This document shows, in pieces, positions 2,935-49,983 of a DNA stretch of 64,000 nucleotides. The stretch's first letter is position 1. Each line of letters begins with the position of its first letter. The notes beneath the pieces are model-generated. The model did no database searches and was not told where the DNA came from. It saw only the letters and a program-made list of their open reading frames with translations. This DNA is from a bacterium (GTDB lineage: Bacteria; Patescibacteriota; JABMPQ01; JAUVWW01), in NCBI GenBank assembly GCA_030603885.1, contig JAUVWW010000001.1, positions 70,716-134,715 on the forward strand, read 5' to 3'. The translations under genes were made by a program, and so were the position numbers.

Positions 2935-3351
2935 ATGAGAACATATGTTCCCAAGAAAATCGAGCGCCGATGGCATCTAATTGATGCCAAGGATAAGGTA
3001 TTAGGAAGGCTAGCTGTCCAGGTAGCTACTTTACTTTCTGGGAAACATAAGCCAATCTATACTCCTAATATCGATGTAGGAGATTATGTGGTGGTTATTA
3101 ATGTTCAGGATATAAAAGTAACTGGAAAGAAATTGGAGCAAAAAAAATACTGGCGCTATACTGGCTATCCAGGAGGAATAAGAGCAAGAACTTTAAAAGA
3201 ACAAAAAGCTCAAGATCCAGCTAAAGTGATTGTCCATGCCGTAAGAGGAATGCTACCTCGAAACAGACTAAGGGAAGGAAGACTAAAGAGACTAAAAGTT
3301 TTTGTAGGAGCAGAACATCCATATAAGAAACAAATGACAAGTAAAAAGTAA
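2935..3351 (+). CDS. rplM: 50S ribosomal protein L13
   Basis: WHLIDAKDKVLGRLA...VVVINV signature; L13-S9 gene pair. Confidence 0.92.
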   Translation: MRTYVPKKIERRWHLIDAKDKVLGRLAVQVATLLSGKHKPIYTPNIDVGDYVVVINVQDIKVTGKKLEQKKYWRYTGYPGGIRARTLKEQKAQDPAKVIVHAVRGMLPRNRLREGRLKRLKVFVGAEHPYKKQMTSKK

Positions 3352-3369
3352 CAAATTGCTAATTGTTAT

Positions 3370-3819
3370 ATGCCCAAAACAATAACTAAGAAAAAAGAAG
3401 AAACTATAAAAAAAGAAATACCTAAACCAGCAGGTAAATATGTTTATGCTGTAGGTCGGAGAAAAGAATCTTCGGCCCGAGTGCGGCTTTATTCTGGAAA
3501 AGGTAGGATTACAATTAATAAAAAAGAGTATAGGCAATACTTTCCTATTTTTTATTTACAAAAGAAAGTTCTTGAGCCTCTAAGGTTAACAAAACTTCTG
3601 AATAAATTTGATATATCTATTAAAGTAACAGGTGGAGGAATCCGAGGTCAAGCCGAGGCTATAAGATTAGGAATTGCAAGATGTCTCATCAAACATGATG
3701 TTAAACTTAGACCCTCTTTAAAAGCAGCTGGCTTTCTAAAGCGTGATGCCAGAGTAAAAGAAAGAAAAAAGCCCGGTCTCAAACGTGCCCGCAAAGCTCC
3801 ACAGTGGGCTAAAAGATAA
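3370..3819 (+). CDS. rpsI: 30S ribosomal protein S9
   Basis: C-terminal GGGIRGQAEAIRLGIARCL...KRARKAPQWAKR is diagnostic of S9. Confidence 0.92.
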   Translation: MPKTITKKKEETIKKEIPKPAGKYVYAVGRRKESSARVRLYSGKGRITINKKEYRQYFPIFYLQKKVLEPLRLTKLLNKFDISIKVTGGGIRGQAEAIRLGIARCLIKHDVKLRPSLKAAGFLKRDARVKERKKPGLKRARKAPQWAKR

Positions 3820-3839
3820 ACAAGGCATATAACTATAAG

Positions 3840-5312
3840 TTAGTAAATTTTAGCTTGGTATATATTTTTTACTTTGTCTTTCTTGTCTATAAAATAAACC
3901 ACTTTTCCTTTCAATCTACAAGCCACTTTTGGATCATCAACATTTACTTTTCCTAATTCATAGACATTTCGTTTGTCTCTACCGTCAAGCTCTATTATCT
4001 TGATGGTATTTTTTACTACAAAAACAACGTGCTGGAAATCTGGATACCAGAGGCAGTCTTGGATTTTCTCTGAATAGCGGGTGATTAATTCCTGCTGAGG
4101 TTCTTCTAATTCGATATCAAAATCTTCGTCTACAAAACGTAACACAAAAATCTCATAATCATTTTGATAAAGTAATTTATGTTGTAAGGAATCCCACATT
4201 ACCTTTTGTGTTTTGTCTGAAATTTTTTGTAATTTATCTTCTTTATTTAAAATGTACAAAGCCTGGTCTTTTCCCAATCTTAAGACAACCCTTTTTTTGC
4301 CAGCTAGAATTTCACAGGATTCTTCAGCGCCTAGGTCTGAAATATCCGCAATTATCTCTTCCTCTAAAGTGGCTAAGCCCTTTTTTGCAAGTTGGAATGT
4401 TGGCTTAGATTTTTCAATATTCTCAGTATCTTTCAGCGTCTCAGTAACATAATACACATCTTGGTTTATTGTAGCAAAGTCTAGGACTTGAGTAGCTAGC
4501 ACAGGAGAAAGGGTTTTTCGATCTAATTTAATGCTATAGAAATTACCTTGATTTAGCCAAAAAATCTCATTCGAATCTTTAGGATGCCATTTAACCTTTT
4601 CCATTTCAAACTTAAATAGATCTTCTAGGAAAATTATATCTTGAGGTTGATTAGTATTAATGATTACATGATAAGTTAACTGATGTGGCTTAGTTTCTTT
4701 CTCGAAAGATTTTGTCTTATATTGAACTAGCACTTTTTCCGAATCTGGGGACCATTTTATATCAGAAAAAACAAGTCCTTCTAGGACTTTAGCAAACTCT
4801 TCTTTTGATTTTGGAAAAAGTTTTGAGGAGTTATGTGATGCTACATCTAGAAGCCAGATGCCTGCCTCTTCCCCACTGGTGATGGTATAGGCTATTTTCT
4901 TAGCATTAGGAGATAATACGTATTGATCAATTCCAGAATTGATAATTTGTGTCACCTCTGGCTCAGAGAGGAATAGCCTAGCATGTTTTATAGGGGTAGC
5001 TACTCTAAGTTCGACTGTTAACTTTTTCTCCCAAATACTATAACCCTCTTTTTGTAGTTTAACTACATAATCTCTAGGCACAAGATCTCTTATTCTGGCA
5101 TAGGTTCGTCTTGCTTTCAATTTGTCATTAACAAATATATTGACAGTCCTGGGTATGCATTTAACTGTGATCATACCCATCTGAGTTATCCTTTTTTGCT
5201 CAAAATCCCAGCGGAAGCCTGTAGCATAAAGAACTATCAAGGGAGCAATAATAAGAAAAGCAATTATAGCTAGGAAAAAGAGGAGTCTTCTGATGTGTAT
5301 ATTTATGGGCAT
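3840..5312 (-). CDS. hypothetical membrane-anchored protein with a PEGA-like domain and a TolB/WD40-like beta-propeller region
   Basis: N-terminal TM helix (LLFFLAIIAFLIIAPLIVLY). A PEGA-like segment (KCIPRTVNIFVND...RDYVVKLQKEGYS). The downstream propeller-like repeats (IKWSPDSEKVLVQY) are a weak call. Confidence 0.5.
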   Translation of the reverse strand: MPINIHIRRLLFFLAIIAFLIIAPLIVLYATGFRWDFEQKRITQMGMITVKCIPRTVNIFVNDKLKARRTYARIRDLVPRDYVVKLQKEGYSIWEKKLTVELRVATPIKHARLFLSEPEVTQIINSGIDQYVLSPNAKKIAYTITSGEEAGIWLLDVASHNSSKLFPKSKEEFAKVLEGLVFSDIKWSPDSEKVLVQYKTKSFEKETKPHQLTYHVIINTNQPQDIIFLEDLFKFEMEKVKWHPKDSNEIFWLNQGNFYSIKLDRKTLSPVLATQVLDFATINQDVYYVTETLKDTENIEKSKPTFQLAKKGLATLEEEIIADISDLGAEESCEILAGKKRVVLRLGKDQALYILNKEDKLQKISDKTQKVMWDSLQHKLLYQNDYEIFVLRFVDEDFDIELEEPQQELITRYSEKIQDCLWYPDFQHVVFVVKNTIKIIELDGRDKRNVYELGKVNVDDPKVACRLKGKVVYFIDKKDKVKNIYQAKIY

Positions 5313-5436
5313 AGCAAAGAATTTAGAATTTAGAACTAAGAATTAAAACTAGTATAAGTATGTTATCATATTTGTCGATTCTGTAAAGGTTTGCAAATTT
5401 TTTTTAGATGAGATACTATATATTAAAGTTATAATT

Positions 5437-6702
5437 TTGCTTTCTATGGAGAAATTCATTATTCAAGGAAAAAACCTACTTAAAGGAGAAATTTCTGTAT
5501 CTGGAGCCAAAAATTCGGCCCTAAAGTTACTTGCTGCTTCTATTTTAATCCCTGAAGAATGTAGAATTACTAATGTGCCGGATATTGCTGATATTAGGGT
5601 AATGGTTGATATACTTAAGGATCTTGGGGCTGAGGTAAGGCAGAAAAATACTCACGAATATATTATAAATACTAAGAATGTTAAAAAGACAGAGATTAAC
5701 CCGGATTTAGCTGCAAGACTTCGTTCTTCTATTATGCTGGTTACTCCTTTACTGGCTCGTTTTGGAGAAGTGAAATTTCCTTATCCCGGAGGATGTATTA
5801 TTGGAAAAAGGCCTATTGATATATTTCTAGAAGGATTTAAAGCTTTTGGAGCGGAAGTCGAGGAGAAAAATAGCTATTTTCATATCAAGGCAAAAAGATT
5901 AAAAGGATGTAGATTTGTTTTTCCTTGGATTGCTGTGACAGTAACAGAAAGTCTAATCATGGCAGCTATTTTGGCTGAAGGAACTACCATTTTAGAAAAC
6001 TGTGCCCAAGAGCCAGAGATTCAAGCTATGTGTGATTATTTCAATTCCTGTGGAGCAAAAATAAAAGGAGCAGGAACTTCTACTATAAAAATACAGGGAG
6101 TGAACGAAATTTCTGGTGGAACATTCCATGTCATTCCAGATAGAATAGAAACAGGGACATTTGCTGTTTTAGCGGCACTGGCTGGTGAAGGAATTAAGAT
6201 AAGTTCATGTAATCCTAAGCATCTTGAGGTTTTTTGGAAAATGTTAGGCAAAACAGGAGTAAAGCTTGACATAGAAAAAGATTTTGTCTATATTAAGAAA
6301 TCAAGTGATTTTAAGCCACTTGAGGTAAGAACTCATGAATATCCTGGTTTTGTGACAGATCTACAGTCCCCATTTACTGTTCTTTTGACTCAGGCAAATG
6401 GCTTAAGCTTAGTTCACGAGACTATTTACGAGGGGAGACTGCTTTATACAGACAAGTTAAACCGTATGGGAGCCAATATCATTATGTGTGATCCCCACAG
6501 GATAGTGATTCAAGGTCCAACTCCTTTGTATGGAGTAAAAATGGAAAGTCCAGATTTAAGAGCAGGTATGGCACTTTTGATAGCTGCTCTGACTGCCCAA
6601 GGAAAAAGCGAGATTGAGAATATTTATCAGATAGATAGGGGATACGAGAATATTGAGGAACGTTTAAAGAGGTTAGGAGCTGATATTAAAAGAGTAACTT
6701 AA
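5437..6702 (+). CDS. murA: UDP-N-acetylglucosamine 1-carboxyvinyltransferase
   Basis: EPSP-synthase-fold MurA signature (ISVSGAKNSALKLLAASIL, reactive-Cys region CIIGKRPID); length 421 aa. Confidence 0.9.
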   Translation: MLSMEKFIIQGKNLLKGEISVSGAKNSALKLLAASILIPEECRITNVPDIADIRVMVDILKDLGAEVRQKNTHEYIINTKNVKKTEINPDLAARLRSSIMLVTPLLARFGEVKFPYPGGCIIGKRPIDIFLEGFKAFGAEVEEKNSYFHIKAKRLKGCRFVFPWIAVTVTESLIMAAILAEGTTILENCAQEPEIQAMCDYFNSCGAKIKGAGTSTIKIQGVNEISGGTFHVIPDRIETGTFAVLAALAGEGIKISSCNPKHLEVFWKMLGKTGVKLDIEKDFVYIKKSSDFKPLEVRTHEYPGFVTDLQSPFTVLLTQANGLSLVHETIYEGRLLYTDKLNRMGANIIMCDPHRIVIQGPTPLYGVKMESPDLRAGMALLIAALTAQGKSEIENIYQIDRGYENIEERLKRLGADIKRVT

Positions 6703-15218: not shown

Positions 15219-16013
15219 ATGTTTCGCAAGCCAGCTCAAATATTTACAATATCTATAATTATCATCATTGCCCTTATTGTTTTTCATCAACTAGGCTGGC
15301 TTAAATCTGCAGAGGGAATTGCATTGAGAGGTTTATCTCCCATCGGAGGTTTTTTTTATAAGGTAGGAAAAAGGACAGCTGATTTTTTTGGTTTGATAGG
15401 TTCTATTAGAGATTTAGAGAGACAAAACCTTGAGCTACAGGAAAAAGTAAACCAGCTTATAGTAGAAAATGCAAAGCTGAAAGAAGTAGAGAGAGAAAAT
15501 GAGCTGTTGCGTAAGCAGTTAGATTTCGTTAAATCTTCAGAACATAAGCTGCTTTCAGCTTTTATTGTAGCTTTTGACCCAAGTGGACTTTTTCAACTTA
15601 TTACTATAAATAGAGGAGAGAAGGATGGAGTTAGGCAAGGTATGCCAGTAGTTGTATCAGGAGGGATTTTAGTAGGGAAGGTTAAAGAAACAACCAGTAC
15701 AACTTCACAAGTACTTTTGATTACTGACTCATCCAGTAGCATTTCTGGCTTAATTCAGGAATCACAAGCCACTGGAGTGGTTAAAGGAGAAATGAAACTA
15801 GGATTGGTTATGGATATGATCCCTCAAGATGCAGAAGTAAAAAATGGAGATCGTGTTTTAACCTCTAGCTTAGGTGGAGAGTTTCCTGAAGGCCTAGTTA
15901 TTGGGCAAGTTGAAGAAGTACAAAGGCGTGAGGGTGAGCTATTTCAGAAAGCAAGAATAAAACCAGCTTGTGATTTTAGAGAATTGGAAATAGTTTCTGT
16001 AATATTAAAATAA
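15219..16013 (+). CDS. mreC: rod shape-determining protein MreC
   Basis: N-terminal TM, a coiled-coil (LELQEKVNQLIVENAKLKEVERENELLRKQL) and beta-rich C-terminal domains. It sits between mreB and the downstream mreD. Confidence 0.85.
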   Translation: MFRKPAQIFTISIIIIIALIVFHQLGWLKSAEGIALRGLSPIGGFFYKVGKRTADFFGLIGSIRDLERQNLELQEKVNQLIVENAKLKEVERENELLRKQLDFVKSSEHKLLSAFIVAFDPSGLFQLITINRGEKDGVRQGMPVVVSGGILVGKVKETTSTTSQVLLITDSSSSISGLIQESQATGVVKGEMKLGLVMDMIPQDAEVKNGDRVLTSSLGGEFPEGLVIGQVEEVQRREGELFQKARIKPACDFRELEIVSVILK

Positions 16014-18803
16014 ATGACCAAAGAAAAAGCTAAGAAGAAAATCAAAGAACTTGTTAAAGATTACGAAGGTATAAAAAAGAGAGGTGAGGTTGGGTTATAC
16101 AAAGAAGAGACTACGAAACAACGATTTATTCAGCCTTTATTTAAAGCTCTGGGTTGGGATTTCAAAGTTGATGTTTGGCCCGAGGAAAAGGTTTCTAAAG
16201 GCAGGGTAGATTACGCTTTTAAATTAAATAACATTACTAAGTTTTTTGTAGAAACGAAATCATTGAAGATAGGTTTAGATAATCCCGACTATGATAAACA
16301 AGTAATTAACTATGGTTGGCTTAAGGATATAACCTGGGTGGTCTTAACTAATTTTGAGGAGTTAAAAATCTTTAATTCGGAATTGAAAGAAGAAAACCTA
16401 GTTCTTGATTTAACTTATGATAGATATTTAAAAGATTTTGATGATCTTTGGCGTTTAAGTAAAGAAGCTTTTATAAAAGGAGAACTTGATAGATGGGCAG
16501 AAAAATATGGCAAGAAAGCCAAGAGATTGAAAGTAGGAGAACAACTTTTTGAGGATTTATTACAATGGAGAAAATTTTTATCTGATAATGTATATCAGCT
16601 TCTAGGTTTATCAAAAGAAGAGATCAGTGAGGGGGTTCAGAGAATTCTGGACCGCCTTATTTTTATAAGAACTGCTGAAGATAGGGGGATAGAAGAAAAG
16701 ATTTTACTTCCCAAGCTAAGAGAATGGGAAGATAAAGGACGTAAGCAAGAATTTATGGAAGTCCTTAGTAAGGTTTTTAGAGATTTTGATGAAGGATATA
16801 ACAGTGAATTATTTGATCATCATGACTGCGAGAAGTGGGGGTTGGGAACAGAAGTTTTAGAAAAAGTAGTTAAAGGATTGTATAAAACCAAAGATGGTTT
16901 GGATTATGATTTTAGTGCTATTGGTAGTGATGTGCTGGGTGGAATCTATGAGCAATATTTAGGACATTTATTAGAGACGATTAAAGGAGAAACCAAGGTG
17001 ATTAGTGGCCGTGCCAAACGCAAAGAAAAGGGAATTTATTATACCCCTAAATTCATCGTTGATTATATTGTTAAAAATACTTTAGGCGAAGTTTTGAAAA
17101 ATAAGAAACCAAATGAGATAAGGAAGTTAAAAGTTTTAGATCCGGCTTGCGGCTCTGGATCATTTTTACAGAGAGCTCATCAAGAGATTGTTGATTACTT
17201 AGAAGAAAAGAAATCAGAAATCAAAGATGAAAAGAGTAAACTTGGTGCTATCGCTAAATTAATAAAAGAAAAAGAGGGCAAAAAAGAACTTTCTGTAGCT
17301 CAAAAAATTGAGATTTTAAGAAATAATATTTATGGGGTAGATCTAGATCATCAAGCAGTGGAGATTGCTCGTTTAAATTTATTATTAAAGGTTCTTAAAA
17401 AGAGACAAAGACTTCCTTTACTTGATGATACTATTAAAGAAGGTAATTCTTTAATTTCTGGAGATGAGAAAGAGTTGAAGAAATATTTTGGAGATAAATG
17501 GAAAGAGAAAAAACCTTTCAATTGGAAAGAGGAGTTTGAGGAAGTTTTTAGACAAGAAGGATTTGATGTGATTATTGGAAATCCGCCTTATGTGGGTTCC
17601 TTAGAGATTTCAAAAACAAGTTCGAAAGGAGAAAAGGATTATCTCAAAGAAAAATATAGATCTGCTCGTGGCGTTTACGACTTATATGTAGTGTTTTTAG
17701 AAAAGTCCATCAGATTACTTAAAGAGAAAGGATTGTTAGGGTTTATAGTTCCAAATAAGTTTATGTCTACAGATTATGGATTCCATCTCAGAAAATATAT
17801 CTTGGAGAAATGTTCGATAAGAGAAATAATTGACGTGTCTAGTTTGTCTGTGTTTAAAGGAGTGGCAGTCTATCCAATAATCCTCATTTTACAAAAAGAA
17901 AAAAGAAAAAAATATAGGGATAGAAATCAACTTTTATTTAATGAACTAGAAAATATTAATAAATTAGATTTTAAAGAAGGTAGATTAGTTCACCAATCTA
18001 TCTTTACACGAAATAATAAATATGTATTTAGTAGTTTTATTAGTGAAGGTATGATAGGATTGATAAAAAAATTTGAGAAACATACCATTCCATTATGCAA
18101 AGTTTCTGACGTTAGTAGTGGCACAACCGGTTTTGATTATTCAAGATATGGAAAGTTGATTACAGAACAGAAGCCTGAAAAAGAATATAGAAAATTTATT
18201 ATCACGCGTAATATTGAACCCTATTATATTTCCTGGGGTAAAAGAATAAATTATTTAAAAAGGTCTTTCATTCATCCATATCTAGCTTATAGCAAAAAAA
18301 TTATTTCGAAAGGCAAATGGGATCTTTTTAAAGACAAAAAAATTACAATTAGAGGCCTATCAAAAAGATTAACTGCCGCTGCCGATAATGAAGGTTTTGC
18401 TTTAGGGGTAGGAGTTTACGCCTTAAGAAATTTGAAGATTAATAAGAAATTTCTTTTAGCTCTCTTAAATTCAAAGGTTCTAGATTATTATTATCGGGTA
18501 AAGTTCTCTTCAAAGCATCTCGCTGGTGGTTATTTGGGCTTTAATGTAGGACAACTTTCCCAGCTCCCTATTTATAGAATTGATCTCTCTAAAAAATCTG
18601 ATAAGGAAAAACATGACAAACTGCTTAGATTAGTAAATAAGATATTAGAATTAAATAAAGAATTACAGAAGTTTGGAGACAAGATTACAGATAAAAGAAA
18701 AAAGATCGAGAAAGAAATTGAGAGGACGGATAGGAAGATTGATGGGGTGGTATATAAATTGTATGGATTAACTAGAAAGGAGATTAAAATAGTGGAAAAT
18801 TGA
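16014..18803 (+). CDS. MmeI-family Type IIG restriction endonuclease / N6-adenine DNA methyltransferase (single-chain RM)
   Basis: N-terminal PD-(D/E)xK motif with D66...E80-x-K82 (VDYAF...VETK). AdoMet motif I (VLDPACGSGSFL). Motif IV NPPY (IIGNPPYVG). A C-terminal TRD-like region. 929 aa, which is MmeI-like size. Confidence 0.85.
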   Translation: MTKEKAKKKIKELVKDYEGIKKRGEVGLYKEETTKQRFIQPLFKALGWDFKVDVWPEEKVSKGRVDYAFKLNNITKFFVETKSLKIGLDNPDYDKQVINYGWLKDITWVVLTNFEELKIFNSELKEENLVLDLTYDRYLKDFDDLWRLSKEAFIKGELDRWAEKYGKKAKRLKVGEQLFEDLLQWRKFLSDNVYQLLGLSKEEISEGVQRILDRLIFIRTAEDRGIEEKILLPKLREWEDKGRKQEFMEVLSKVFRDFDEGYNSELFDHHDCEKWGLGTEVLEKVVKGLYKTKDGLDYDFSAIGSDVLGGIYEQYLGHLLETIKGETKVISGRAKRKEKGIYYTPKFIVDYIVKNTLGEVLKNKKPNEIRKLKVLDPACGSGSFLQRAHQEIVDYLEEKKSEIKDEKSKLGAIAKLIKEKEGKKELSVAQKIEILRNNIYGVDLDHQAVEIARLNLLLKVLKKRQRLPLLDDTIKEGNSLISGDEKELKKYFGDKWKEKKPFNWKEEFEEVFRQEGFDVIIGNPPYVGSLEISKTSSKGEKDYLKEKYRSARGVYDLYVVFLEKSIRLLKEKGLLGFIVPNKFMSTDYGFHLRKYILEKCSIREIIDVSSLSVFKGVAVYPIILILQKEKRKKYRDRNQLLFNELENINKLDFKEGRLVHQSIFTRNNKYVFSSFISEGMIGLIKKFEKHTIPLCKVSDVSSGTTGFDYSRYGKLITEQKPEKEYRKFIITRNIEPYYISWGKRINYLKRSFIHPYLAYSKKIISKGKWDLFKDKKITIRGLSKRLTAAADNEGFALGVGVYALRNLKINKKFLLALLNSKVLDYYYRVKFSSKHLAGGYLGFNVGQLSQLPIYRIDLSKKSDKEKHDKLLRLVNKILELNKELQKFGDKITDKRKKIEKEIERTDRKIDGVVYKLYGLTRKEIKIVEN

Positions 18804-18843: not shown

Positions 18844-19671
18844 ATGAAGTTTGATTTGAGAAACTGGAAATATCCCAATTTAAAAAAGTTTCTAGAAAAT
18901 CCTTTAACTATGGAAGGTTTAGATTATGATTTTAAAGAAAAAATACCAGATACTAGAGATGAAAAAGGGAAGCGAAGATTAAGAGAAAGTTTTTGTGCTT
19001 TTGCTAATAGTGATGGGGGTTATATATTTTTTGGAATAGATAACAATAAAAGACCTAAAGGAATATATGAGAGCGATTACGAATTTGAAACAAAACTTAA
19101 CAGAATTGTAACTAAAAAGATACTTCCCTCGATTCCTGTTTCAAATTGGCAGATCGCAAAAGATATTAATTTGCCAAGATCAGATGGAGTAGTGTTTGTA
19201 GTGCATATTTTCCCAAGTTTGAGTATCGACAAACCCCATATGACGTCTGAAAGAATTTTTATAAGAGAGCATGGGGAAACTAAGGCGCTAGATGATGGAA
19301 GAGATGTCCAAAAATTATTTGCTGTGAAGTTTAATCGTTATAACATCAAAGAATTAGAATACGACTTAGAAGAGATTAAGGAATGTAGGTTTACTCCTGA
19401 TGAGATAGATGTAATTTATTTAAAACAGTTAAAACATTATTTAGAAAACCAGATTAAGAAGAGAATCCCTGGGTTTCATAGTTTAGATTCTAAGTTAGAT
19501 AGGATCATGCAGTTGTACGAAGAGATAAAGAAAGAAATGTCTGAGGGATATAGAACAAATCAGGCTTCTAACGTTCTGAATAGTGAGAAGTTAATGAAGA
19601 AAGAAGGTTTATTAGGTTCTTCTGTGAAAGAGTTTTTAAAAGAATACAAAAATCTACATAACATACCATGA
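18844..19671 (+). CDS. AlbA_2 / Schlafen-like domain protein
   Basis: Core SFCAFANSDGGYIFFGIDNNKRPKGI matches the AlbA_2 signature (AFANt-GGyliiGvdd...G). Its stop overlaps the next start (ATGA). Confidence 0.7.
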   Translation: MKFDLRNWKYPNLKKFLENPLTMEGLDYDFKEKIPDTRDEKGKRRLRESFCAFANSDGGYIFFGIDNNKRPKGIYESDYEFETKLNRIVTKKILPSIPVSNWQIAKDINLPRSDGVVFVVHIFPSLSIDKPHMTSERIFIREHGETKALDDGRDVQKLFAVKFNRYNIKELEYDLEEIKECRFTPDEIDVIYLKQLKHYLENQIKKRIPGFHSLDSKLDRIMQLYEEIKKEMSEGYRTNQASNVLNSEKLMKKEGLLGSSVKEFLKEYKNLHNIP

Positions 19672-22600
19672 GTAAACAGGGTCAATACAATTACAGCGGA
19701 ATAAATTTCCAATCCTGGGCAGCAATGTCGTTGTTCTTGCAGTATTTGCGTGATTCTGATTTCTCACATATTTATTTGGAAGCCCCTGAGTTTCAAGATT
19801 TCAATTTAGTTTTTAATGATGGGAGAAAAATTATTTGCGAAGCAAAAAGTTGGAAGAAGAAATTTAGTTTTGCTGACTTAAGAAAAATTCTTACCTCTAT
19901 ACTAGATAAAGAAAATATAGGCAAAAATGATGAAGTTCTGATAATTTGCAGAAATTTAGATAAGAAATTAGAAAAAAAAGTTGAAAATATTAAATATTTT
20001 AGAGAGATCATTGCCCCTTATTTTAATAAGGAAAAGAGATTTTCAAAAGAAGAAATTGAAGTTTTACCTAAAGTAAATTTCTGGAAAGTTTCTGGAAAGA
20101 TTAATGAAAAAATCATATATTCCCTTTTTAGTGAATTATTGAATTTCTGGATACCAGAAGAAGATTTGAAGAGGATAGTAGACAGTATTTTAATGCAAAA
20201 AATTTATAAATGTTCTGCCAAGGGAACAGCATTTACAAGAATAGATCTTTTAATGGAAATAGAAAGTTTAAAAAGAGAGGTTATTGAGAAAAGCGGTGAT
20301 TTCGATGAAAATAGAAGGAAAATCGAAGATCAGCTTAAAGATGTGATCAAAGCAATTAAAGATAATAAATCATTAGTATGGACTCATGGCAGAGTTTCTG
20401 CACTTTCTGCTCAGCCGAATTTAATGTATTTTGTACTCCAAAAGTTTAAAGAGAAGAAAATTGATAAACTTGAGGACTGGAAAGACTTATGGGAGCTTAA
20501 TAAAGTATATGCGTTTTCTTTCGATATATTTAAAATTTTCGAGAGCAATCTTCATAACAGGAAAAACAGGGTATACATTTTAAAATTTATTAGAGAGAAT
20601 CTCCTGGGCTTTAGAAGGTTTTTTAGATCAGACTTCTTTGAAATGGGTGTAGTAAAAATTATGAATGGAGTCATAGAACAAGATAAAACTTTGCTTAATG
20701 AAGCTTTTGAAATTGTAAAGGAATTATTAAAAAGATACGAAAATGAATACTTCTATCTTAAAAGTAATCAAGATTCAGAATGGAGAAGAGGAGAAATTTG
20801 TAAATTACTTAAGAAGATTTATGAGAATAGCGATGAGAGTCTAAAAAACAGAATTTATGAATTAATAACTAATCATTTCAATCTAATTGCAGATGATAGC
20901 GAGTTTAGTTATTATACTCCCGAAGTTGTATTTAAAATTTTAGAAAATTGCTTAACAGATGGTTGGAATAAATTTGAAAAAAGATTTATTGAATTAAGTA
21001 AAATTTTAGCGGAGCAATATGAAAAGTTTTACAAGCGATTTGGTAAAAAAACAAAATTCAAGGGTTGGGAATTAATGGGTGGAGTAACTACGTCTTGGGG
21101 CCATGATTATAAAGTAATAGATAGACACTTTATTAGATTTACTTTAAAACCCGCATTAGGGAAATATTATAAAACTAACAAAAAGAGATGTTGGTCTTTT
21201 GTGATGGGAGAGTGTATTTCAACTACAAACAGAGTTAGTAGAAAGGGTCCTGATTTTTTGAATCGTGCTTCAGTTTCTATTATTTTGGATAGGTATAGAA
21301 ATAGAAATGCCAAAGTATCTAATAAAGCTTTTAGGATACTAAAAGAGTTTATTTTATCGTGGAAAGGCATACCTCATAAATCCGATTTAATTTATCAGGA
21401 GCTCCGCGGAGATTTCTCAGATGATAAGAAATGGAAATTAGTAAAAATAAGCATTGATAAATATAAACTGCCCATTAATTCTTTCGTGGAACAGATTGTT
21501 TTGGAGCTAGCTAAAAAGAGACATAAAAAATCAAAGGAAATATTGAGAGGTTGGATTAGAGATCCGAAGTATTATAAAAGAGGAATTTTTGAAAGAAATG
21601 TAATTGTAAATATTTCTCAATTTTTAGATGTTTCGTTTAATGAGGGGGTAGAGATGTTTAAGGATTTTATTAATGGAGATTATTTTCTAAAGAAAATGGA
21701 TTATTTTAATGCTTTTGAGGCAGCAAGAGTATTAAATAAAATTATAGATAGAAATTTCAACACAGGGTTAGAAATTCTCGAAACCTTATCTCAAAAATTA
21801 AAATTAACCGATAACGAACAAATTTTATTGTGTAGTAGCTTGACTGACAAAGACGATTCTAAACAAGAAAATAAAAAGGTTTTAATAAAGATTTATGAAG
21901 AGTTTTTGGGTCCATTCTTAGATAGTTTAGATAATGATATTAAAAAAATTGAAAAGAGAATTACTCGGCCACAATCTAGAGAAGCAATTGTAGAATTTGC
22001 TGATGCCCTGGTTAAACATCAGAAAATTCCAGAGGCAATGAGAATAGTAAGATTGTTTGTTAATGATTCTGATCCTTGTACTCCGGAGAAGGTCGATTCT
22101 GAAGATCTCAAGGGAGAATATGATAAACATAAACAAATTGAGCAAGGCGAAGATACTCTTACTATTAATACTGTAAGAGGTCGGTGTGCTTGGGTATTAA
22201 TGAATTGTGCAGTTTTGGCTGGTAGGGACCATATCGAGGAAATTATTAATTTAACAGAAAAATTAACAAAAGACAAAAATTACTATATTCAATGGATGTC
22301 TTGCCATTCTTTATCTCAATTAGCAAGAAATCGGCTTACAATAATGCCTGAAAATAAAAAAGAACTATTCTTTAATAAAGATAGAGAAAAAGCATTGAAA
22401 ATGGCTAAAAGAGTTGAAAAAATCGCTTTTGAATTATTAGAAAAATTCTCTAAGCTAGGACCCAAGCCAAGAGATGTTTTGATGAGAGCATTACTAAAAG
22501 TATTTGATCATATAAGAGGATTAAACCAGAAAGATGCAAGATTATTACTAAAGAAAATTTCCAAATGCGGAGAGAAAGTTTTTAGTGAAGCCGCTCCATT

Positions 22601-23300
22601 GTTTATTTACTTTGCTGAATTTAGACAAAAAGATTTTAAGAATTGGAAATGGCAGATGCCAGAATTATACGATGATTTGGAAAATTTCGACAATAAAGAA
22701 TTCCAAAAGTTTTTAGAAAATATTCTTAAGAAGAGAAATTCAAAAATTAATTCTCATTTTGCTTGGCGTTTCTGGAAGCTTACAAAGGAATCTGTGTCGG
22801 ATAAGGCAGATATAAAAAATGTGGTTAAATATAGCGAAGCATTCGAAATATCCGACAGATATTTGAATATTCTTTCAGATAGCTACGACCATCAAACATT
22901 TAAAAATATTTATTACTTTATTCGAGAGAATGTTGATAAGCGATTTAAAGAGTGTTATAAACTTTGGCGAAAGTGCCTAGCAAAAGAAAAGCCTGTTATG
23001 GAAAAGTTAATAAAAGAGGAGAAAATATACGAAACATCTTGGTGGCCATTTTATCATAACGACGAAATCTTAACAATCATCAAACAAAAAGCTGGTAATA
23101 AAGAATTTTTGAATTCTTTTGAATTTTTATTGAATTATCCAAATGAGGCTAACATTGGTGATATAAAAAATGTAGTCGAAGTTTTGCAGAGTTTACCATC
23201 CAAGTATAATCAGAGAGTAGAAAAAATCTTTGAAATGTTGATAGATAGAGATCCAAATTTCTATGACATAAAAGAAAGCTGGGTAGAAAGAGAGAAATAG
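19668..23300 (+). CDS. large (1210 aa) uncharacterised protein: N-terminal PD-(D/E)xK-like motif plus a long alpha-helical repeat body, no P-loop
   Basis: N-terminal GINFQSW...IYLE...DFNLVFNDGRKIICEAKSWKK, a D...E-x-K arrangement reminiscent of DUF4297/NERD-type nucleases. No GxxxxGK[ST] anywhere. K/E/L-rich helical sequence throughout. Confidence 0.6.
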   Translation: MSKQGQYNYSGINFQSWAAMSLFLQYLRDSDFSHIYLEAPEFQDFNLVFNDGRKIICEAKSWKKKFSFADLRKILTSILDKENIGKNDEVLIICRNLDKKLEKKVENIKYFREIIAPYFNKEKRFSKEEIEVLPKVNFWKVSGKINEKIIYSLFSELLNFWIPEEDLKRIVDSILMQKIYKCSAKGTAFTRIDLLMEIESLKREVIEKSGDFDENRRKIEDQLKDVIKAIKDNKSLVWTHGRVSALSAQPNLMYFVLQKFKEKKIDKLEDWKDLWELNKVYAFSFDIFKIFESNLHNRKNRVYILKFIRENLLGFRRFFRSDFFEMGVVKIMNGVIEQDKTLLNEAFEIVKELLKRYENEYFYLKSNQDSEWRRGEICKLLKKIYENSDESLKNRIYELITNHFNLIADDSEFSYYTPEVVFKILENCLTDGWNKFEKRFIELSKILAEQYEKFYKRFGKKTKFKGWELMGGVTTSWGHDYKVIDRHFIRFTLKPALGKYYKTNKKRCWSFVMGECISTTNRVSRKGPDFLNRASVSIILDRYRNRNAKVSNKAFRILKEFILSWKGIPHKSDLIYQELRGDFSDDKKWKLVKISIDKYKLPINSFVEQIVLELAKKRHKKSKEILRGWIRDPKYYKRGIFERNVIVNISQFLDVSFNEGVEMFKDFINGDYFLKKMDYFNAFEAARVLNKIIDRNFNTGLEILETLSQKLKLTDNEQILLCSSLTDKDDSKQENKKVLIKIYEEFLGPFLDSLDNDIKKIEKRITRPQSREAIVEFADALVKHQKIPEAMRIVRLFVNDSDPCTPEKVDSEDLKGEYDKHKQIEQGEDTLTINTVRGRCAWVLMNCAVLAGRDHIEEIINLTEKLTKDKNYYIQWMSCHSLSQLARNRLTIMPENKKELFFNKDREKALKMAKRVEKIAFELLEKFSKLGPKPRDVLMRALLKVFDHIRGLNQKDARLLLKKISKCGEKVFSEAAPLFIYFAEFRQKDFKNWKWQMPELYDDLENFDNKEFQKFLENILKKRNSKINSHFAWRFWKLTKESVSDKADIKNVVKYSEAFEISDRYLNILSDSYDHQTFKNIYYFIRENVDKRFKECYKLWRKCLAKEKPVMEKLIKEEKIYETSWWPFYHNDEILTIIKQKAGNKEFLNSFEFLLNYPNEANIGDIKNVVEVLQSLPSKYNQRVEKIFEMLIDRDPNFYDIKESWVEREK

Positions 23301-23461: not shown

Positions 23462-23995
23462 ATGAAAACTTTTTTCTTCATCCTCAGCCTCGTTTTTGTT
23501 ATCCTCCTTCAGGTAGCTTTTTTGCCTCATTTTACTTTATATCAAGCTATACCTAATTTAATCTTGGCAGTTCTTGTTTCTTGGTGTATACTTCAGAGTT
23601 ACAATCAAGCTTATGTATTAGCTTTCCTAGCGGGCCTATCTTTGGATCTTTACTCCGGAACTTTGTTTGGAATACATACTCTGACGCTAGTTTGCGTAGC
23701 CTTGATTACTTATTTAATTACTCAGCATTTTCTAAATAAAGACGATTTATTTACTAGACTAATGATAATTATTTTGGCTACTTTAGGCTATCAGTTTATA
23801 TTTTTAGGCTTTACATTTTTAGCCAAGCTATTACACTTAGTGGATTACAGTATCCCTTTATCCAACCAATATCTTGGTTTTCTTCTCTGGCAAATTCTAG
23901 TTAATGCTATAGTTTTACTTATAATTTTCCCTATGATAAAAGCTAGCCATAATTTTTTGCTGAGACATGAAAAGAGGGCAAGAGTCGAAGTATAA
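23462..23995 (+). CDS. mreD: rod shape-determining protein MreD
   Basis: Five-TM small protein with an MreD-like AFLAGLSLDLYSGTLFGIHTL motif. It lies immediately upstream of PBP2. Confidence 0.75.
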   Translation: MKTFFFILSLVFVILLQVAFLPHFTLYQAIPNLILAVLVSWCILQSYNQAYVLAFLAGLSLDLYSGTLFGIHTLTLVCVALITYLITQHFLNKDDLFTRLMIIILATLGYQFIFLGFTFLAKLLHLVDYSIPLSNQYLGFLLWQILVNAIVLLIIFPMIKASHNFLLRHEKRARVEV

Positions 23996-23997
23996 AC

Positions 23998-25956
23998 ATG
24001 ACTAATATGAAGGATCCATTTTCAACACCCAACTATCTTTCAGACAAAGAATCAAAAGGCAAAAAAATTACTCCTTCCAAGAGAGGGGATGAGTGGGAGG
24101 AGAGTCTTTTTGAAACAGACGAAGAAGAGGAAGTAAGAACTGTTCAACCTCTTTTTAATTATGCCAAAATAAAATGGCTGTATTTAATAGCCATTTTAGT
24201 CTTTTTAGTCCTAGCAAGTAGAATTTTTTATTTACAAGTTGTAGCTTCTGATGAATTCAGGCAGGCAGCTGAAGAAAATCGTTTTAGGGTCCATGTTATT
24301 CGGGCTCCCAGAGGAATAGTTTTAGATAGCCAAAGAAACCTTTTGGTTCGCAATATTCCTAGTTTTGATATTATAGCTATTCCAGCTGATCTACCCAAGG
24401 ATGAAAATGATAGGAGACAACTTTGGTCTACCTTAATGTCTAAAATTGACATTTCACAAGATGAACTAAACCAAGCTCTTTTAGATATAAATTATACTTC
24501 CTGGCAACCTATTTTGATTAAAAAGGGTATCCTGAGAGATCAAGCCTTGATTTTAGAAACTCAACTTCAAGATCTCCCAGGCATAGTACTAGAGAAAAAT
24601 CCTATCAGAGAATATTCTGAGGCTGAGTTTTTTGCTCACATCCTAGGCTATACTGGAAAAATTAGTCAGGAGGAATTAGAAAAAAGAGAAGATTATTTAC
24701 TAAACGACTACATAGGAAAATCAGGGCTGGAGTTATATTATGAAGATACTTTACGAGGAAAGAATGGGAAAGAGCAAGTGGAAGTGGCAGCTGGAGGTAA
24801 GCAGGAAAGGATTTTAGCTACAGAAGAGCCTATAACTGGTAGTGATTTGGTTCTATCGATAGAGAGAGATTTACAGAAAAAGATGCATGAACTTCTGAAA
24901 AATGGAATGGTTAAAGCAGGGTCCTCCAAAGCAGCTGCCATAGCTTTAGATCCCAGAAATGGTGAAATTTTAGGAATAGTTAGTCTTCCTTCTTATGATA
25001 ATAATTTATTTGCCAAAGGTATTAGTGAGGAAGACTACCAAAGATTAGCTCAGGATCAAGATCGACCTCTTTTCTCAAGAGATATATCCGGAACATATCC
25101 CCCTGGTTCTACTATAAAGCCAGTTATGGCGGCAGCAGGATTACAAGAGGGTGTAATTACCAGAAATACCATTATTAATGATACAGGCGTTATTACTGTG
25201 CCTCATGAATATAATCCTGATATTACCTATACTTATTACGGCTGGGCTAGAGGAGGGCTTGGTCCAATGAACGTAATTTCTGCTATTGCTAAGTCTTCGG
25301 ATATATATTTTTATACTGTAGGAGGAGGGCAAGAATCTTTGGGAATTAAAGGTTTAGGAGCAGAAAAAATTGCCGAATATTTTAAAAAATTTGGACTAGA
25401 GTCTAAGCTAGGCATTGATTTACCCAATGAAGCAGAGGGTCTTGTTCCTACTCCAGAGTGGAAAGAGAAAGCAAAAGGAGAAATGTGGTATTTAGGAAAT
25501 ACCTATCACGAGTCTATTGGACAAGGGGATGTACTAGTAAGTCCTCTGCAAGTGGTTTCTTGGACAGCAACCATTGCCAATGGAGGAAGATTATATAAAC
25601 CTCATCTAGTTAGACAAATTATTAACCCTGATGGTTCTACCCAAAATACTCAACCAGAAGTTATTCGATCAGATTTTATTTCAAGTTATAACATCAATTT
25701 GGCCCGCCAAGGAATGAGAGAAGCAGTCCTTTCGGGTTCAAGCGTAGCTTTAACTGATTTACCTATTGCAGCAGCTGGAAAAACAGGCACGGCTGAAACA
25801 GGCAAAGGAACTACTCATGCCTGGTTTATCTGTTTTGCTCCCTATGAAAATCCAGAAATTGCTCTTGTAGTTTTAATTGAAAAAGGAGGAGAAGGACACG
25901 AAACAGCAGTGCCTATAGCTAAAGAAATTTTGAAATGGTGGTTTGAGAATAAATAA
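23998..25956 (+). CDS. mrdA: penicillin-binding protein 2 (peptidoglycan D,D-transpeptidase)
   Basis: N-terminal TM, a PBP dimerisation domain, and transpeptidase motifs STIKP (SxxK), SSD/SxN region and KTGTAE (KTG). Confidence 0.88.
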   Translation: MTNMKDPFSTPNYLSDKESKGKKITPSKRGDEWEESLFETDEEEEVRTVQPLFNYAKIKWLYLIAILVFLVLASRIFYLQVVASDEFRQAAEENRFRVHVIRAPRGIVLDSQRNLLVRNIPSFDIIAIPADLPKDENDRRQLWSTLMSKIDISQDELNQALLDINYTSWQPILIKKGILRDQALILETQLQDLPGIVLEKNPIREYSEAEFFAHILGYTGKISQEELEKREDYLLNDYIGKSGLELYYEDTLRGKNGKEQVEVAAGGKQERILATEEPITGSDLVLSIERDLQKKMHELLKNGMVKAGSSKAAAIALDPRNGEILGIVSLPSYDNNLFAKGISEEDYQRLAQDQDRPLFSRDISGTYPPGSTIKPVMAAAGLQEGVITRNTIINDTGVITVPHEYNPDITYTYYGWARGGLGPMNVISAIAKSSDIYFYTVGGGQESLGIKGLGAEKIAEYFKKFGLESKLGIDLPNEAEGLVPTPEWKEKAKGEMWYLGNTYHESIGQGDVLVSPLQVVSWTATIANGGRLYKPHLVRQIINPDGSTQNTQPEVIRSDFISSYNINLARQGMREAVLSGSSVALTDLPIAAAGKTGTAETGKGTTHAWFICFAPYENPEIALVVLIEKGGEGHETAVPIAKEILKWWFENK

Positions 25957-29920: not shown

Positions 29921-31138
29921 ATGAAAACAATCAAAAAATGGGGGATTGCTTTGGCAATCTTCTTTGTCTTACTCCTTGTTCCTTTGTCAGCTGTCTTGGC
30001 TTTTGATTTTAGAGCTGGGGACCAGATAGTCACTATTGGAAAGGATGAAGTTATTAATGATGATGTCATAGTTGCTGGTCAAGCAATTAATGTTGAAGGA
30101 ACTATTAATGGAGATCTAATTGCTGCTGCCAATACAGTAACTGTCTCAGGTGAAGTTAAAGGCAGTGTTATAGCTGGGGCAGGAACAGTAGATATTTCTG
30201 GAAAAGTAGGTAATGATGTCTTAGCTGGTGCAGGAATAGTTAATATTACTGGCGAGGTAGGAGATAATGTAATAGCCGGCGCAGGAAATTTGACTATCTC
30301 ATCCGGAGCCAAAGTTAAAAACGAAGTACTGGCTGGTGCAGGTAATTTTGATTTATCTGGTGAAGTAGGAAGTGTTAATGTTAGTACTGGCCAGGCTATA
30401 ATCTCTGGAAAAGTAGCAAAAAATGTTCATCTTAAAGCCAGTGAGCAAGTTGAGGTTACCTCTAGTGCTGATATAGGTGGAGACTTTAATTATAAAAGTC
30501 CAGAAAAGACAGAAATACCTCATGGGGCCAAGATAGGAGGAGAGACAAAGTGGGAAATAATTAAGGAAGCCAAAAGAAGAGCTAGAGGTCTTTATGGTAT
30601 TCCCTTTGCTCTTGGGTTTATGGGATTGGTGTTTAGTCTGTTTAGTAAGTTGGGATTGTTAATTTTAGGTCTGATTATTGTTTGGCTTGCTCCAAAACCC
30701 AGTAAAGAGGTAATAGATAAAATTACTAAAACACCTGGCTCAAGCTTTGGTTGGGGACTTTTGACTGTAATTGTGGCACCTATTGTCTGTTTTATAGCCC
30801 TTTTCACTATCATCGGAATACCCTTAGGATTAATTGGATTTGCTTTGTTAGGGATTGCTATCTATATAAGCAAGGTATTCCTTGGATTGTTTATCGGAGA
30901 AAAAATTATCAAAGCTTTTAGCAAGAACAAGCAGGTATCTTTATATGGTGCAGTAGCACTGGGTACTATCATTGTCATTATAGTTTCCTATATACCAATT
31001 TTAGGCTTTTTAGCCATAGGAATTGGTAGCCTCTTTGCCTTGGGAGCTTTGCTTATGGTTAAAAAAGAGCATTGTCTAAAGATTTGTGGACGAGAGCCTA
31101 AAGAAGTTATTCCAAAGGTTGAAGAAACTACGAAATAA
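29921..31138 (+). CDS. membrane protein with an N-terminal beta-helical (bactofilin-like) repeat domain and a C-terminal polytopic TM domain
   Basis: Signal/TM. About 20-aa repeats V[IL]AGAG-V-I[ST]G-V. At least 4 TM helices at the C-terminus. Confidence 0.55.
   Translation: MKTIKKWGIALAIFFVLLLVPLSAVLAFDFRAGDQIVTIGKDEVINDDVIVAGQAINVEGTINGDLIAAANTVTVSGEVKGSVIAGAGTVDISGKVGNDVLAGAGIVNITGEVGDNVIAGAGNLTISSGAKVKNEVLAGAGNFDLSGEVGSVNVSTGQAIISGKVAKNVHLKASEQVEVTSSADIGGDFNYKSPEKTEIPHGAKIGGETKWEIIKEAKRRARGLYGIPFALGFMGLVFSLFSKLGLLILGLIIVWLAPKPSKEVIDKITKTPGSSFGWGLLTVIVAPIVCFIALFTIIGIPLGLIGFALLGIAIYISKVFLGLFIGEKIIKAFSKNKQVSLYGAVALGTIIVIIVSYIPILGFLAIGIGSLFALGALLMVKKEHCLKICGREPKEVIPKVEETTK
30100..30420 (+). 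repeat. intragenic tandem repeat with ~60-nt period, encoding the beta-helix repeats
   Basis: Repeated gctggtgcaggaa...ggtgaagtagga units read directly. Bounds are approximate. Confidence 0.6.
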
Positions 31139-47460: not shown

Positions 47461-49983
47461 ATGCCTATAGAGCCTACAATTGAAGCAATCGATTGGTACA
47501 TGGTTGGCTTTGTGGCCTTATTTGTGGCAATTTGTTTGGTTTTTGTACTGGCGGTCTTAGCTTTTGTTTTTAGATTTTTGAGATCCCGAAACATGGTTCC
47601 CAAATCCTTGAATATGGTTACTCTTTTGGTGATGGTTCCAAGAGAGCTAAGGGAGAAAGAGGCAGAGCCCAAAAAAGAAGAAAAAGATATCATTTCTGTA
47701 GCTGAGACTATGTTTGCCAATTTATCTGCTATCAAAGTTCGAGCCAATTGGATGAAGAATCTTCTTTTGGGAAGAGATTATCTTAGCTTTGAGTTGGTAG
47801 CCGTAAAAGAAGAAATTTGTTTTTATGTAGTTACCCCAAGGTATCTACAATCGTTTATAGAAAAGCAGATCCATTCTCAATATCCAAAAGCCTTAGTTCA
47901 AGAAGCAGGAGAATATAATATCTTTCAGCCAAAAGGCTTTGTTAAAGGAACCACATTAAAATTCGCCAAAAGATATTATCTTCCTATAAAAACTTATAAA
48001 ACTTTAGAGACAGATCCTCTAAATGCTTTAGCTGAAGCTTTGTCTAAGCTTTCTGAAAAAGAAGGAGCTTGCATCCAGATACTTATTAGACCTGCTCCAA
48101 AAGGTTGGGCAGCTAGAGGGAAAAAGATTGCCAGAGTCATGAAACAGGGAAAGAGTTTTGAGGAAGCTACTGGAAAAAATATTTTTTCTGAGATGTGGGC
48201 AGCTTTAACCAAGGAAGTTAAAAGAGCAGCTACTCCTGAAGAAGTAATAAAAATGAGACGTGCTTATGGATATGAGGAAGAGAAACCAAAAGTACTTACT
48301 CCCATGCAGGAAGAGATGGTCAAGGCTTTGGAGGAAAAAGCAGGCAAACTAGGATTTGAAACTAACATAAGAATAGTTGCCTCCTCAGATACAGAAGAAA
48401 AAGCTAAGATGCATCTGGATAACATAGTAGGAGCCTTTACTCAGTTTAGCCATCCTTATTTCAACAGTTTTAAATCAATTGGTGTTCCCAAAAAGAAATT
48501 AATTCGGGATTTTATCTTCCGTTATTTTGAAGAAGGTAAAAAATTTATTTGCAATACAGAAGAGCTAACTTCAATTTATCATTTTCCAACTAAATATCTA
48601 GAAGTTCCTCATGTAAAATGGCTTTTAGCTAAGCAAGCTCCACCTCCTTCTGATGCACCTAAAGAAGGCCTGCTTTTAGGAAAAAATATCTATCGAGGAG
48701 TAGAAACACCTGTCTATATCAAAGACGATGATAGACGTCGGCATATATACATGATTGGAATGACCGGGACTGGTAAATCTACCTTATTGCTAAACATGGC
48801 TGTTCAAGATATTAAAAATGGAAAAGGACTATGTGTTATTGATCCTCACGGAGATTTAATTGAAGCTATACTTGAGCATATTCCTAAAGAAAGAGCTGAC
48901 GATGTCATTCTCTTTGATCCTTCTGACTTGGAACGGCCTTTAGGCTTAAATATGCTTGAATGGAAAAGACCAGAGGAGAAAGATTCTGCTGTGGCAGAGA
49001 TGATTGCTATTTTTTACAAACTTTTTCCTCCGGAAATCATTGGTCCTATGTTTGAGCACAATATGCGTAATGCTATGTTGACTTTGATGGAGGATAAAGA
49101 ACATCCGGGAACCATTGCTGAAATCCCTAGGATGTTTACAGATACAGATTTTCAAAATTATAAACTAAAGAAAGTAAAAGATCCTGTGGTTAGAGCTTTT
49201 TGGGAAAAAGAGATGGCCAAGACTTCAGATTTTCATAAATCAGAGATGCTGGGATATTTAATTTCCAAAGTTGGTAGATTTGTGGAAAATGAAATGATGA
49301 GAAATATTATTGGCCAGGCAAAATCGGCTTTTGATGTAAGAGAAGTTATGGACGAAGGGAAAATTTTACTAGTTAATCTTTGTAAGGGTAAAGTGGGAGA
49401 AATAAATAGTCATCTTTTGGGTTTAATTTTAGTTTCTAAAATTATGATGGCAGCACTTTCTCGAGTGGATACTCCAGAAAAGCAAAGAAGAGACTTCTAT
49501 CTTTATGTGGATGAGTTTCAAAACTTTGTCTCAGACACCTTTGTTTCTATTATTGCCGAGGCTCGAAAATATAGACTAAATCTTATTATTAGCCATCAAT
49601 TTATTGGTCAGCTAGATGAGAAAATGAGAGATGCAGTTTTAGGTAATGCCGGAACCTTTACGTGTTATAGAATAGGGGTTGAGGATGCAGAAATAGCAGC
49701 CAAGGAATTTGATCCTATCTTTGACCAAACAGATGTTATTAATATTGAAAGATTCAATCTATATTTACGCTTGATGATAAACAACACTGCCTCAAAGCCA
49801 TTTTCTATGGCTGCTTTTCCTCCTCCTCCAGGTGGATCAGAAGAAGTAGCCAAAGCTGTAAAAGAGCTCTCTAGACTAAAACATGGAAAAGAGAAAAAAG
49901 TAATAGAAACCGAAATTTTAGAGCGAGCTAAACTTGGAGCTCCAATTAGAGAAGCAGCCATGGGAAGAGAAGTGAGTCTGTAA
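47461..49983 (+). CDS. membrane-anchored P-loop ATPase of the type IV coupling protein (VirD4/TraG/TraD) / VirB4-like family
   Basis: N-terminal TM helices. Walker A (MIGMTGTGKSTLL) followed by CVIDPHGD. Walker B (LYVDEFQNF). Downstream RK and sensor residues. Confidence 0.65.
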   Translation: MPIEPTIEAIDWYMVGFVALFVAICLVFVLAVLAFVFRFLRSRNMVPKSLNMVTLLVMVPRELREKEAEPKKEEKDIISVAETMFANLSAIKVRANWMKNLLLGRDYLSFELVAVKEEICFYVVTPRYLQSFIEKQIHSQYPKALVQEAGEYNIFQPKGFVKGTTLKFAKRYYLPIKTYKTLETDPLNALAEALSKLSEKEGACIQILIRPAPKGWAARGKKIARVMKQGKSFEEATGKNIFSEMWAALTKEVKRAATPEEVIKMRRAYGYEEEKPKVLTPMQEEMVKALEEKAGKLGFETNIRIVASSDTEEKAKMHLDNIVGAFTQFSHPYFNSFKSIGVPKKKLIRDFIFRYFEEGKKFICNTEELTSIYHFPTKYLEVPHVKWLLAKQAPPPSDAPKEGLLLGKNIYRGVETPVYIKDDDRRRHIYMIGMTGTGKSTLLLNMAVQDIKNGKGLCVIDPHGDLIEAILEHIPKERADDVILFDPSDLERPLGLNMLEWKRPEEKDSAVAEMIAIFYKLFPPEIIGPMFEHNMRNAMLTLMEDKEHPGTIAEIPRMFTDTDFQNYKLKKVKDPVVRAFWEKEMAKTSDFHKSEMLGYLISKVGRFVENEMMRNIIGQAKSAFDVREVMDEGKILLVNLCKGKVGEINSHLLGLILVSKIMMAALSRVDTPEKQRRDFYLYVDEFQNFVSDTFVSIIAEARKYRLNLIISHQFIGQLDEKMRDAVLGNAGTFTCYRIGVEDAEIAAKEFDPIFDQTDVINIERFNLYLRLMINNTASKPFSMAAFPPPPGGSEEVAKAVKELSRLKHGKEKKVIETEILERAKLGAPIREAAMGREVSL

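Follow-up and report, generated by a model that had tools for sequence, protein, structure and literature searches.

A predicted Type IIG restriction-modification enzyme and the gene pair behind it in the cell-shape operon of a Patescibacteriota genome

A 64,000-nucleotide stretch of a Patescibacteriota genome (lineage JABMPQ01; JAUVWW01; assembly GCA_030603885.1, contig JAUVWW010000001.1, positions 70,716 to 134,715), here called the window, carries at 16014-18803 an open reading frame (ORF) that is very probably a functional, horizontally acquired single-chain Type IIG restriction-modification enzyme of a large uncharacterised family, combining an HsdR_N-type nuclease, an Eco57I/gamma-class methyltransferase, and a target recognition domain (TRD) of the TaqI_C type. 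The enzyme itself is an ordinary addition to the known Type IIG kind; its setting is unusual and may be new: it opens a three-gene island within a cell-shape operon and is followed by a Schlafen gene and an unannotated gene for a 1210-aa protein.

The best PADLOC model for the protein is REase_MTase_IIG PDLC03604 (E=8.9e-140, 466 bits), which spans residues 5-718, including the N-terminus. Pfam adds Eco57I (E=1.8e-47, 162 bits), N6_Mtase (2.2e-26, 93 bits), MmeI_Mtase (4.5e-15, 56 bits) and TaqI_C (2.3e-12). On the PADLOC and Eco57I values, the observation lies far beyond chance. Two marks of the class are present here: the chain has its own TRD, and it matches a Type IIG profile derived from REBASE. 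An earlier sequence-only reading of this DNA had called the gene an MmeI-like single-chain Type IIG enzyme, and the single-chain Type IIG call is borne out by the PADLOC match and by a five-domain order that is the same as in MmeI.

Domain layout and nuclease

16014..18803, forward strand: Type IIG restriction-modification gene, one ORF with an ATG start, 929 aa plus stop
16014..16508, forward strand: N-terminal PD-(D/E)xK nuclease domain, aa 1 to ~165
16209-16211, 16251-16253 and 16257-16259: nuclease residues D66, E80 and K82, followed by Q96xxxY100
16533..16988, forward strand: helical spacer, aa ~174-325
17019..17993, forward strand: gamma-class N6-adenine methyltransferase domain, aa ~336-660 (Pfam Eco57I 437-614, N6_Mtase 306-663)
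aa 340-345: methyltransferase motif X, GIYYTP
17133-17168: methyltransferase motif I, VLDPACGSGSFL, aa 374-385
17580-17591: methyltransferase motif IV, NPPY, aa 523-526
17994..18578, forward strand: TRD of the TaqI_C type, aa ~661-855 (Pfam TaqI_C 732-853, E=2.3e-12)
18594..18800, forward strand: C-terminal helical bundle, aa 861-929, with modelled helices at 861-885, 893-916 and 921-928

The start codon is supported by homologues that begin at the same residue, and the ATG begins at the first base after the stop codon of the preceding gene, mreC. An AlphaFold model built on 37 homologues (pLDDT 84.9, pTM 0.81) divides the protein into five parts: a nuclease of alpha-beta-beta-beta-alpha-beta fold, a helical spacer, a Rossmann-type methyltransferase, a mixed alpha/beta TRD, and a helical bundle. 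The model places D66, E80 and K82 on strands beta2 and beta3. The methyltransferase motifs run in the order X, I, IV, which is that of gamma-class N6-adenine enzymes, and all are invariant in homologues. A script check found D66 within SKGRVDYAFKL, E80 and K82 within FFVETKSLK, and DPACGSG from residue 376. The PD-(D/E)xK residues thus have the positions given in the sequence-only reading, and the motif I and NPPY named there are present. That reading also assigned about 300 residues to the TRD. The TRD is shorter, at about 200 residues (~660-855), and is followed by a helical bundle of about 70 (861-929).

Conservation argues for a working nuclease. D66, E80, K82, Q96 and Y100, together with motifs I and IV, are invariant across the 37 homologues (42-68% identity), and 64 of 67 full-length family ORFs taken from named genomes, among them some with only ~30% identity, retain the D..ExK..QxxxY pattern. 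A triad and QxxxY that stay invariant in a family diverged this far would not be expected of a dead nuclease domain. The intact triad also answers a doubt attached to the sequence-only reading, that the residues might have been lost as in PglX.

By its profile matches the nuclease domain is HsdR_N-like. The Pfam HSDR_N match is weak when the whole 929-aa protein is scanned; the isolated N-terminus reaches 32.4 bits (cut-off 25.1), and all 27 family N-termini scanned match this model. HSDR_N_2 gives E=0.0012 (19.4 bits, cut-off 25) and matches 18 of the 27, and MmeI_N gives E=0.025 (15.3 bits, cut-off 27) and matches 10 of the 27, the best at E=2.7e-6. The spacing is D-X13-ExK followed by QxxxY, and the latter motif is required for efficient cleavage by HsdR of EcoR124I (PMC2475608). 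The likeness to the N-terminal nuclease of Type I HsdR (EcoR124I; the Vibrio HsdR fragment 3H1T) thus comprises the HSDR_N match and a RecB-family QxxxY after ExK; the difference is that the present enzyme has no helicase motor and joins its nuclease straight to a methyltransferase and TRD.

Relation to PglX, MmeI and other Type IIG enzymes

The methyltransferase half of the protein invites a different reading, in which the nuclease fold no longer cuts and the protein is a PglX-like or orphan methyltransferase whose sole task is DNA marking, either in epigenetic regulation or within a BREX-like system. The solved structures closest to the methyltransferase-plus-TRD part are indeed those of the orphan enzyme CamA and of BREX PglX/BrxX, with PglX aligning over ~940-1000 columns. 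A profile search of the PDB gives E-values of 5.8e-52 for CamA, 1.2e-37 for BseCI, ~1e-30 for PglX/BrxX, ~1e-19 for TaqI and 1.2e-4 for MmeI. Yet NCBIfam returns only sub-threshold methyltransferase matches, with BREX-1 PglX (BREX_1_MTaseX) reaching 117 bits where 500 are required and the BREX-2, -5 and -6 models also far below their cut-offs, and the PADLOC PglX model scores 102 bits against 466 for Type IIG. Grouping with nuclease-dead PglX-like methyltransferases, the outcome that would have overturned the sequence-only reading, is therefore not what these PglX scores indicate.

The neighbourhood agrees. No BrxA, BrxB, BrxC, PglZ or BrxL homologue was found among the neighbouring genes or the ten other large ORFs scanned in the window, of which eight are housekeeping genes (aminoacyl-tRNA synthetases, DnaB, DnaX, a MurA-like gene and others) and two have no Pfam match. 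The enzyme thus differs from BREX PglX/BrxX (PDB 8C45, 9EWZ) in its conserved catalytic triad, its sub-cut-off BREX scores and the lack of BREX partners in the genes scanned, and from CamA (7LNI) in possessing a nuclease and spacer. With the triad and QxxxY held constant across the family as well, a non-cutting PglX-like or orphan methyltransferase is an improbable account of this protein.

MmeI offers the closest parallel in layout. Both proteins run from nuclease through spacer, gamma-class methyltransferase and TRD to a helical bundle, at 929 residues here and 919 in MmeI (PDB 5HR4), and the MmeI bounds (nuclease 1-155, spacer 156-300, methyltransferase 301-620, TRD 621-825, bundle 826-919) give domains of nearly the same sizes. 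The MmeI paper gives motif I as FFDPACGCGNFL and motif IV as GNPPF, and writes the nuclease triad as VD70(X9)E80MK82, in agreement with the D70/E80/K82 given in the sequence-only reading. The further claim that the two triads are identical in register fails: 13 residues separate D from E here, against 9 in MmeI, and only the numbers of the E and K coincide. Searches of PDB sequences with the N-terminal family profile and with the N-terminus of one member found no MmeI match. Alignment by hhalign of the family N-terminal profile with MmeI 1-183, from an MmeI sequence verified over residues 1-388 against PDB 5hr4, is collinear over 107 columns at E=0.1. It pairs D66 with D70, E80 with E80, K82 with K82, Q96 with Q94 and Y100 with Y98; at this score the correspondence of the catalytic residues is suggestive. 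Together with the MmeI_N matches, this alignment makes it probable that both nucleases are members of a single superfamily.

Could the protein then be a true MmeI-family (Type IIL) enzyme, with cleavage 20/18 nt from its site and protection that depends on modifying one strand? The shared domain order and similar domain lengths, the pairing of the triad and QxxxY, the MmeI_N matches in some family N-termini, and the lack of an adjoining companion methyltransferase would all fit. However, MmeI_hel, MmeI_TRD and MmeI_C find no match in the Pfam scan, MmeI_N stays below its cut-off, and MmeI_Mtase is the only MmeI model that passes, with Eco57I and N6_Mtase scoring higher. The two enzymes share 16% identity and differ in nuclease spacing (D-X13-ExK against D-X9-ExK), in TRD (TaqI_C type against MmeI_TRD) and in the better fit of the present nuclease to HSDR_N than to MmeI_N. 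Membership in the MmeI family is accordingly very unlikely. Because three of the MmeI models fail to match and the MmeI hit in the PDB profile search is marginal, the enzyme is better assigned, on profile evidence, to another Type IIG lineage that works like MmeI in layout; the description "MmeI-like" stands for the architecture, and probably for the nuclease superfamily, and falls for the family.

Other Type IIG enzymes with Eco57I-type methyltransferase domains (PDLC03604; DrdV, BpuSI) likewise hold nuclease, methyltransferase and TRD in one chain, with the difference that no characterised enzyme was identified inside the present family. Eco57I and BpuSI have companion methyltransferases, and the enzyme here has none adjacent: no second methyltransferase was found among the neighbours of the gene (mreC and the Schlafen gene), a check confined to the window. 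As judged within that window, this is a further likeness to MmeI.

Several points weigh against a functional Type IIG enzyme of the kind proposed. No biochemically characterised member of the family was found. The methyltransferase-plus-TRD part is closer to the methyltransferase-only proteins CamA, BseCI and PglX than to any proven restriction enzyme. The alignment with the MmeI nuclease is not significant alone, and disorder of that domain in the MmeI structure 5hr4 precludes structural superposition.

If the Type IIG reading holds, a single TRD would read a short DNA site on behalf of both activities. The methyltransferase, with S-adenosylmethionine (SAM) bound, would flip out and methylate an adenine within the site, and an asymmetric site would leave only one strand marked. 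The nuclease would sit on the helical spacer and cut unmodified DNA at a fixed distance on one side, probably after two enzyme molecules have paired. Specificity would shift by exchange of the segment from just past NPPY to about residue 880. The gene itself probably entered by horizontal transfer, at the head of the three-gene island that separates mreC from mreD; the low GC of the island supports this.

Family distribution and apparent exchange of the recognition module

The family is large and widely spread. More than 7,900 relatives, mostly from uncultured bacteria and archaea, fall below 1e-10, and the best 120 are mostly full-length proteins of ~820-1,040 aa with 39-65% identity. Named relatives are annotated generically, as "N-6 DNA methylase" or similar. 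The 80 family loci found in named genomes come from a wide range of phyla in both Bacteria and Archaea, and nearly all lie in metagenome-assembled genomes; homologues on plasmids of cultured bacteria are 25-31% identical. As a rule, a family locus has one methyltransferase ORF.

Comparison with the closest relative (P0002, at 3349-6018 of locus L007) reveals a mosaic. Identity is 82-100% over aa 1-500, drops to 0-50% per 20-residue window over aa 541-880, and is high again past aa 880. The left junction of the divergent segment lies just after NPPY, at about residue 530. The TRD, which is the least conserved block in the family, is 0-30% identical to that of P0002. The genomic neighbourhood differs too, with P0002 beside Mrr and HEPN/nucleotidyltransferase genes and not beside the Schlafen/1210-aa pair. 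The mosaic points to recombination that replaced the recognition module and left the scaffold as it was, an outcome to be expected where selection favours altered specificity. Enzymes that share almost the whole scaffold and differ in the recognition module could help to engineer new specificities, as has been done with MmeI.

The island and the gene pair downstream

15219..16013, forward strand: mreC, left border of the island (Pfam MreC E=1.3e-45)
18844..19671, forward strand: Schlafen/AlbA_2 protein of 275 aa, the "-1" gene of the pair (Pfam SLFN_AlbA_2 E=2.3e-19, 70.5 bits, cut-off 25.3)
19668..23300, forward strand: 1210-aa protein, with an N-terminal PD-(D/E)xK-fold domain (E38, D44, E58, K60) and then a long HEAT-like alpha-solenoid
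23462..23995, forward strand: mreD, right border of the island (Pfam MreD E=6.9e-10), with pbp2 next at 23998

The gene order is mreB, mreC, the Type IIG enzyme, the Schlafen gene, the 1210-aa gene, mreD and pbp2, and the placement of an island inside the mreBCD-pbp2 cell-shape operon is unusual. GC content is 0.28-0.33 (about 0.30) within the island and 0.35-0.39 (about 0.37) in the flanking DNA. Neither direct nor inverted repeats were found at the island ends, there are no tRNA genes in the window, and promoter and terminator counts are the same as in shuffled sequence. Elsewhere in the window, two ORFs of 490 and 405 aa, at 3840-5312 (reverse strand) and 29921-31138 (forward strand), lie among housekeeping genes with no Pfam match at E<=1e-5. 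An 840-aa protein at 47461-49983, amid replication and translation genes, has weak matches to type IV secretion coupling proteins and HerA-like ATPases.

The Schlafen gene overlaps the 1210-aa gene by 4 nt. Its product carries the motif E24-x4-D29-x-K31 (E24GLDYD29FK31), which fits Ex4(E/D)xK, the catalytic motif that prokaryotic Schlafen tRNases are reported to carry, and so counts as a candidate Schlafen nuclease; prokaryotic Schlafens defend against phage. The 1210-aa protein has no match in Pfam, PADLOC or NCBIfam, and its 136 full-length homologues are all unannotated. Its structural model (pLDDT 86.6) displays the PD-(D/E)xK fold at the N-terminus and the long solenoid after it. Of the motif residues, E38, D44 and E58 are invariant and K60 is nearly so, and Foldseek returns only generic HEAT solenoids at low TM-scores. 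The absence of profile matches and the generic solenoid fold led to the rejection of BrxC as an identity for this protein. The family was not found in viral contigs, and no paper was found that describes the Schlafen/1210-aa pair.

The pair is present in 69 dereplicated metagenome clusters, and a small gene precedes the 1210-aa gene in every locus with room to show it, usually overlapping. The "-1" slot is occupied by eight unrelated families: Schlafen in 24 of 67 cases, two unknown families in 17 and 10, a Cap4 nuclease in 7, and others including CHAT and Mrr. A C-terminal adaptor shared across these differing proteins was considered and rejected, a common C-terminal region being found only within the Schlafen group.

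The genes upstream of the pair are often restriction genes. Of 59 distinct "-2" genes, about half encode parts of restriction systems, comprising 16 Eco57I/TaqI_C single-chain enzymes, 4 N6_N4 methylases, 3 HsdS, 3 ResIII, 2 HpaII, 1 HsdR C-terminal domain and 1 Type ISP. Downstream, 56 "+1" genes yielded no methyltransferase among the 25 families listed of the 42 matched. A same-strand gamma-methyltransferase/Type IIG ORF lies upstream in 16 of 33 loci (dereplicated at 90% identity, with at least 4.5 kb of upstream sequence needed) against downstream in 1 of 24 (Fisher p=2.9e-4). At other loci the enzymes ahead of the pair fall into PADLOC Type IIG families 03596 and 03601, with matches that begin at residue 1; the proposal that they are nuclease-less and PglX-like was rejected on these matches.

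The three-gene arrangement itself recurs. In an uncultured gammaproteobacterium (locus L014, 7995-15093), a Type IIG gene of the same family, a Schlafen gene and a gene for a 1194-aa protein follow one another with 4-nt overlaps and 35-39% identity to the window. At another locus (L009, 3-8921), the genes ahead of the pair are not of Type IIG but encode a Type III Mod (N6_N4_Mtase) and Res (ResIII plus endonuclease); the large protein of that pair shares 70% identity with the 1210-aa protein of the window.

These observations make it conceivable, on a tentative footing, that the enzyme is part of a three-gene composite defence unit in which the pair serves as a second line or guard that fires when restriction is blocked or overwhelmed. 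The conserved overlap of the pair, the upstream bias of Type IIG genes, the spread of "-2" restriction genes over Types IIG, I, III, HpaII and ISP, the absence of methyltransferases among the "+1" families listed, and the recurrence of the gene order in Gammaproteobacteria all point this way, and eight unrelated families in one slot are typical of effector swap. Other observations count against it. The pair is present at only 1 of 80 genomic loci of the enzyme's own family, so the enzyme does not need it and is better regarded as self-sufficient, with the link to the pair optional. About half of the pair's loci have no restriction gene upstream, and the varying type of the partner restriction system speaks against a specific physical complex.

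A resembling arrangement is that of PrrC, held by the Type I enzyme EcoprrI. Beside BREX, Schlafen RNases have been described as acting as backup effectors (PMC12839542), and the likeness of both cases to the pair lies in a latent RNase-type effector in or behind a restriction or modification operon; the difference is that the pair here has an unannotated 1210-aa nuclease-HEAT partner and a varying effector slot. On a guarded reading, the gene for the Schlafen or other effector and the 1210-aa gene may together constitute an anti-phage module, new to the literature, that sits at the 3' end of restriction operons and above all behind single-chain Type IIG genes from at least three families. Such a module could act as a backup or guard that senses when restriction fails or is inhibited and releases a swappable effector, and the island in the window might then be one working unit.

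The context is more consequential than the enzyme, in that a conserved unannotated pair recurs on the downstream side of many types of restriction gene. The enzyme represents a family of thousands in candidate-phyla bacteria and archaea for which no characterised representative was found. Should the pair prove to be a layer of defence tied to restriction, it would be a new case of layered immunity and would give bacterial Schlafen nucleases a new role.

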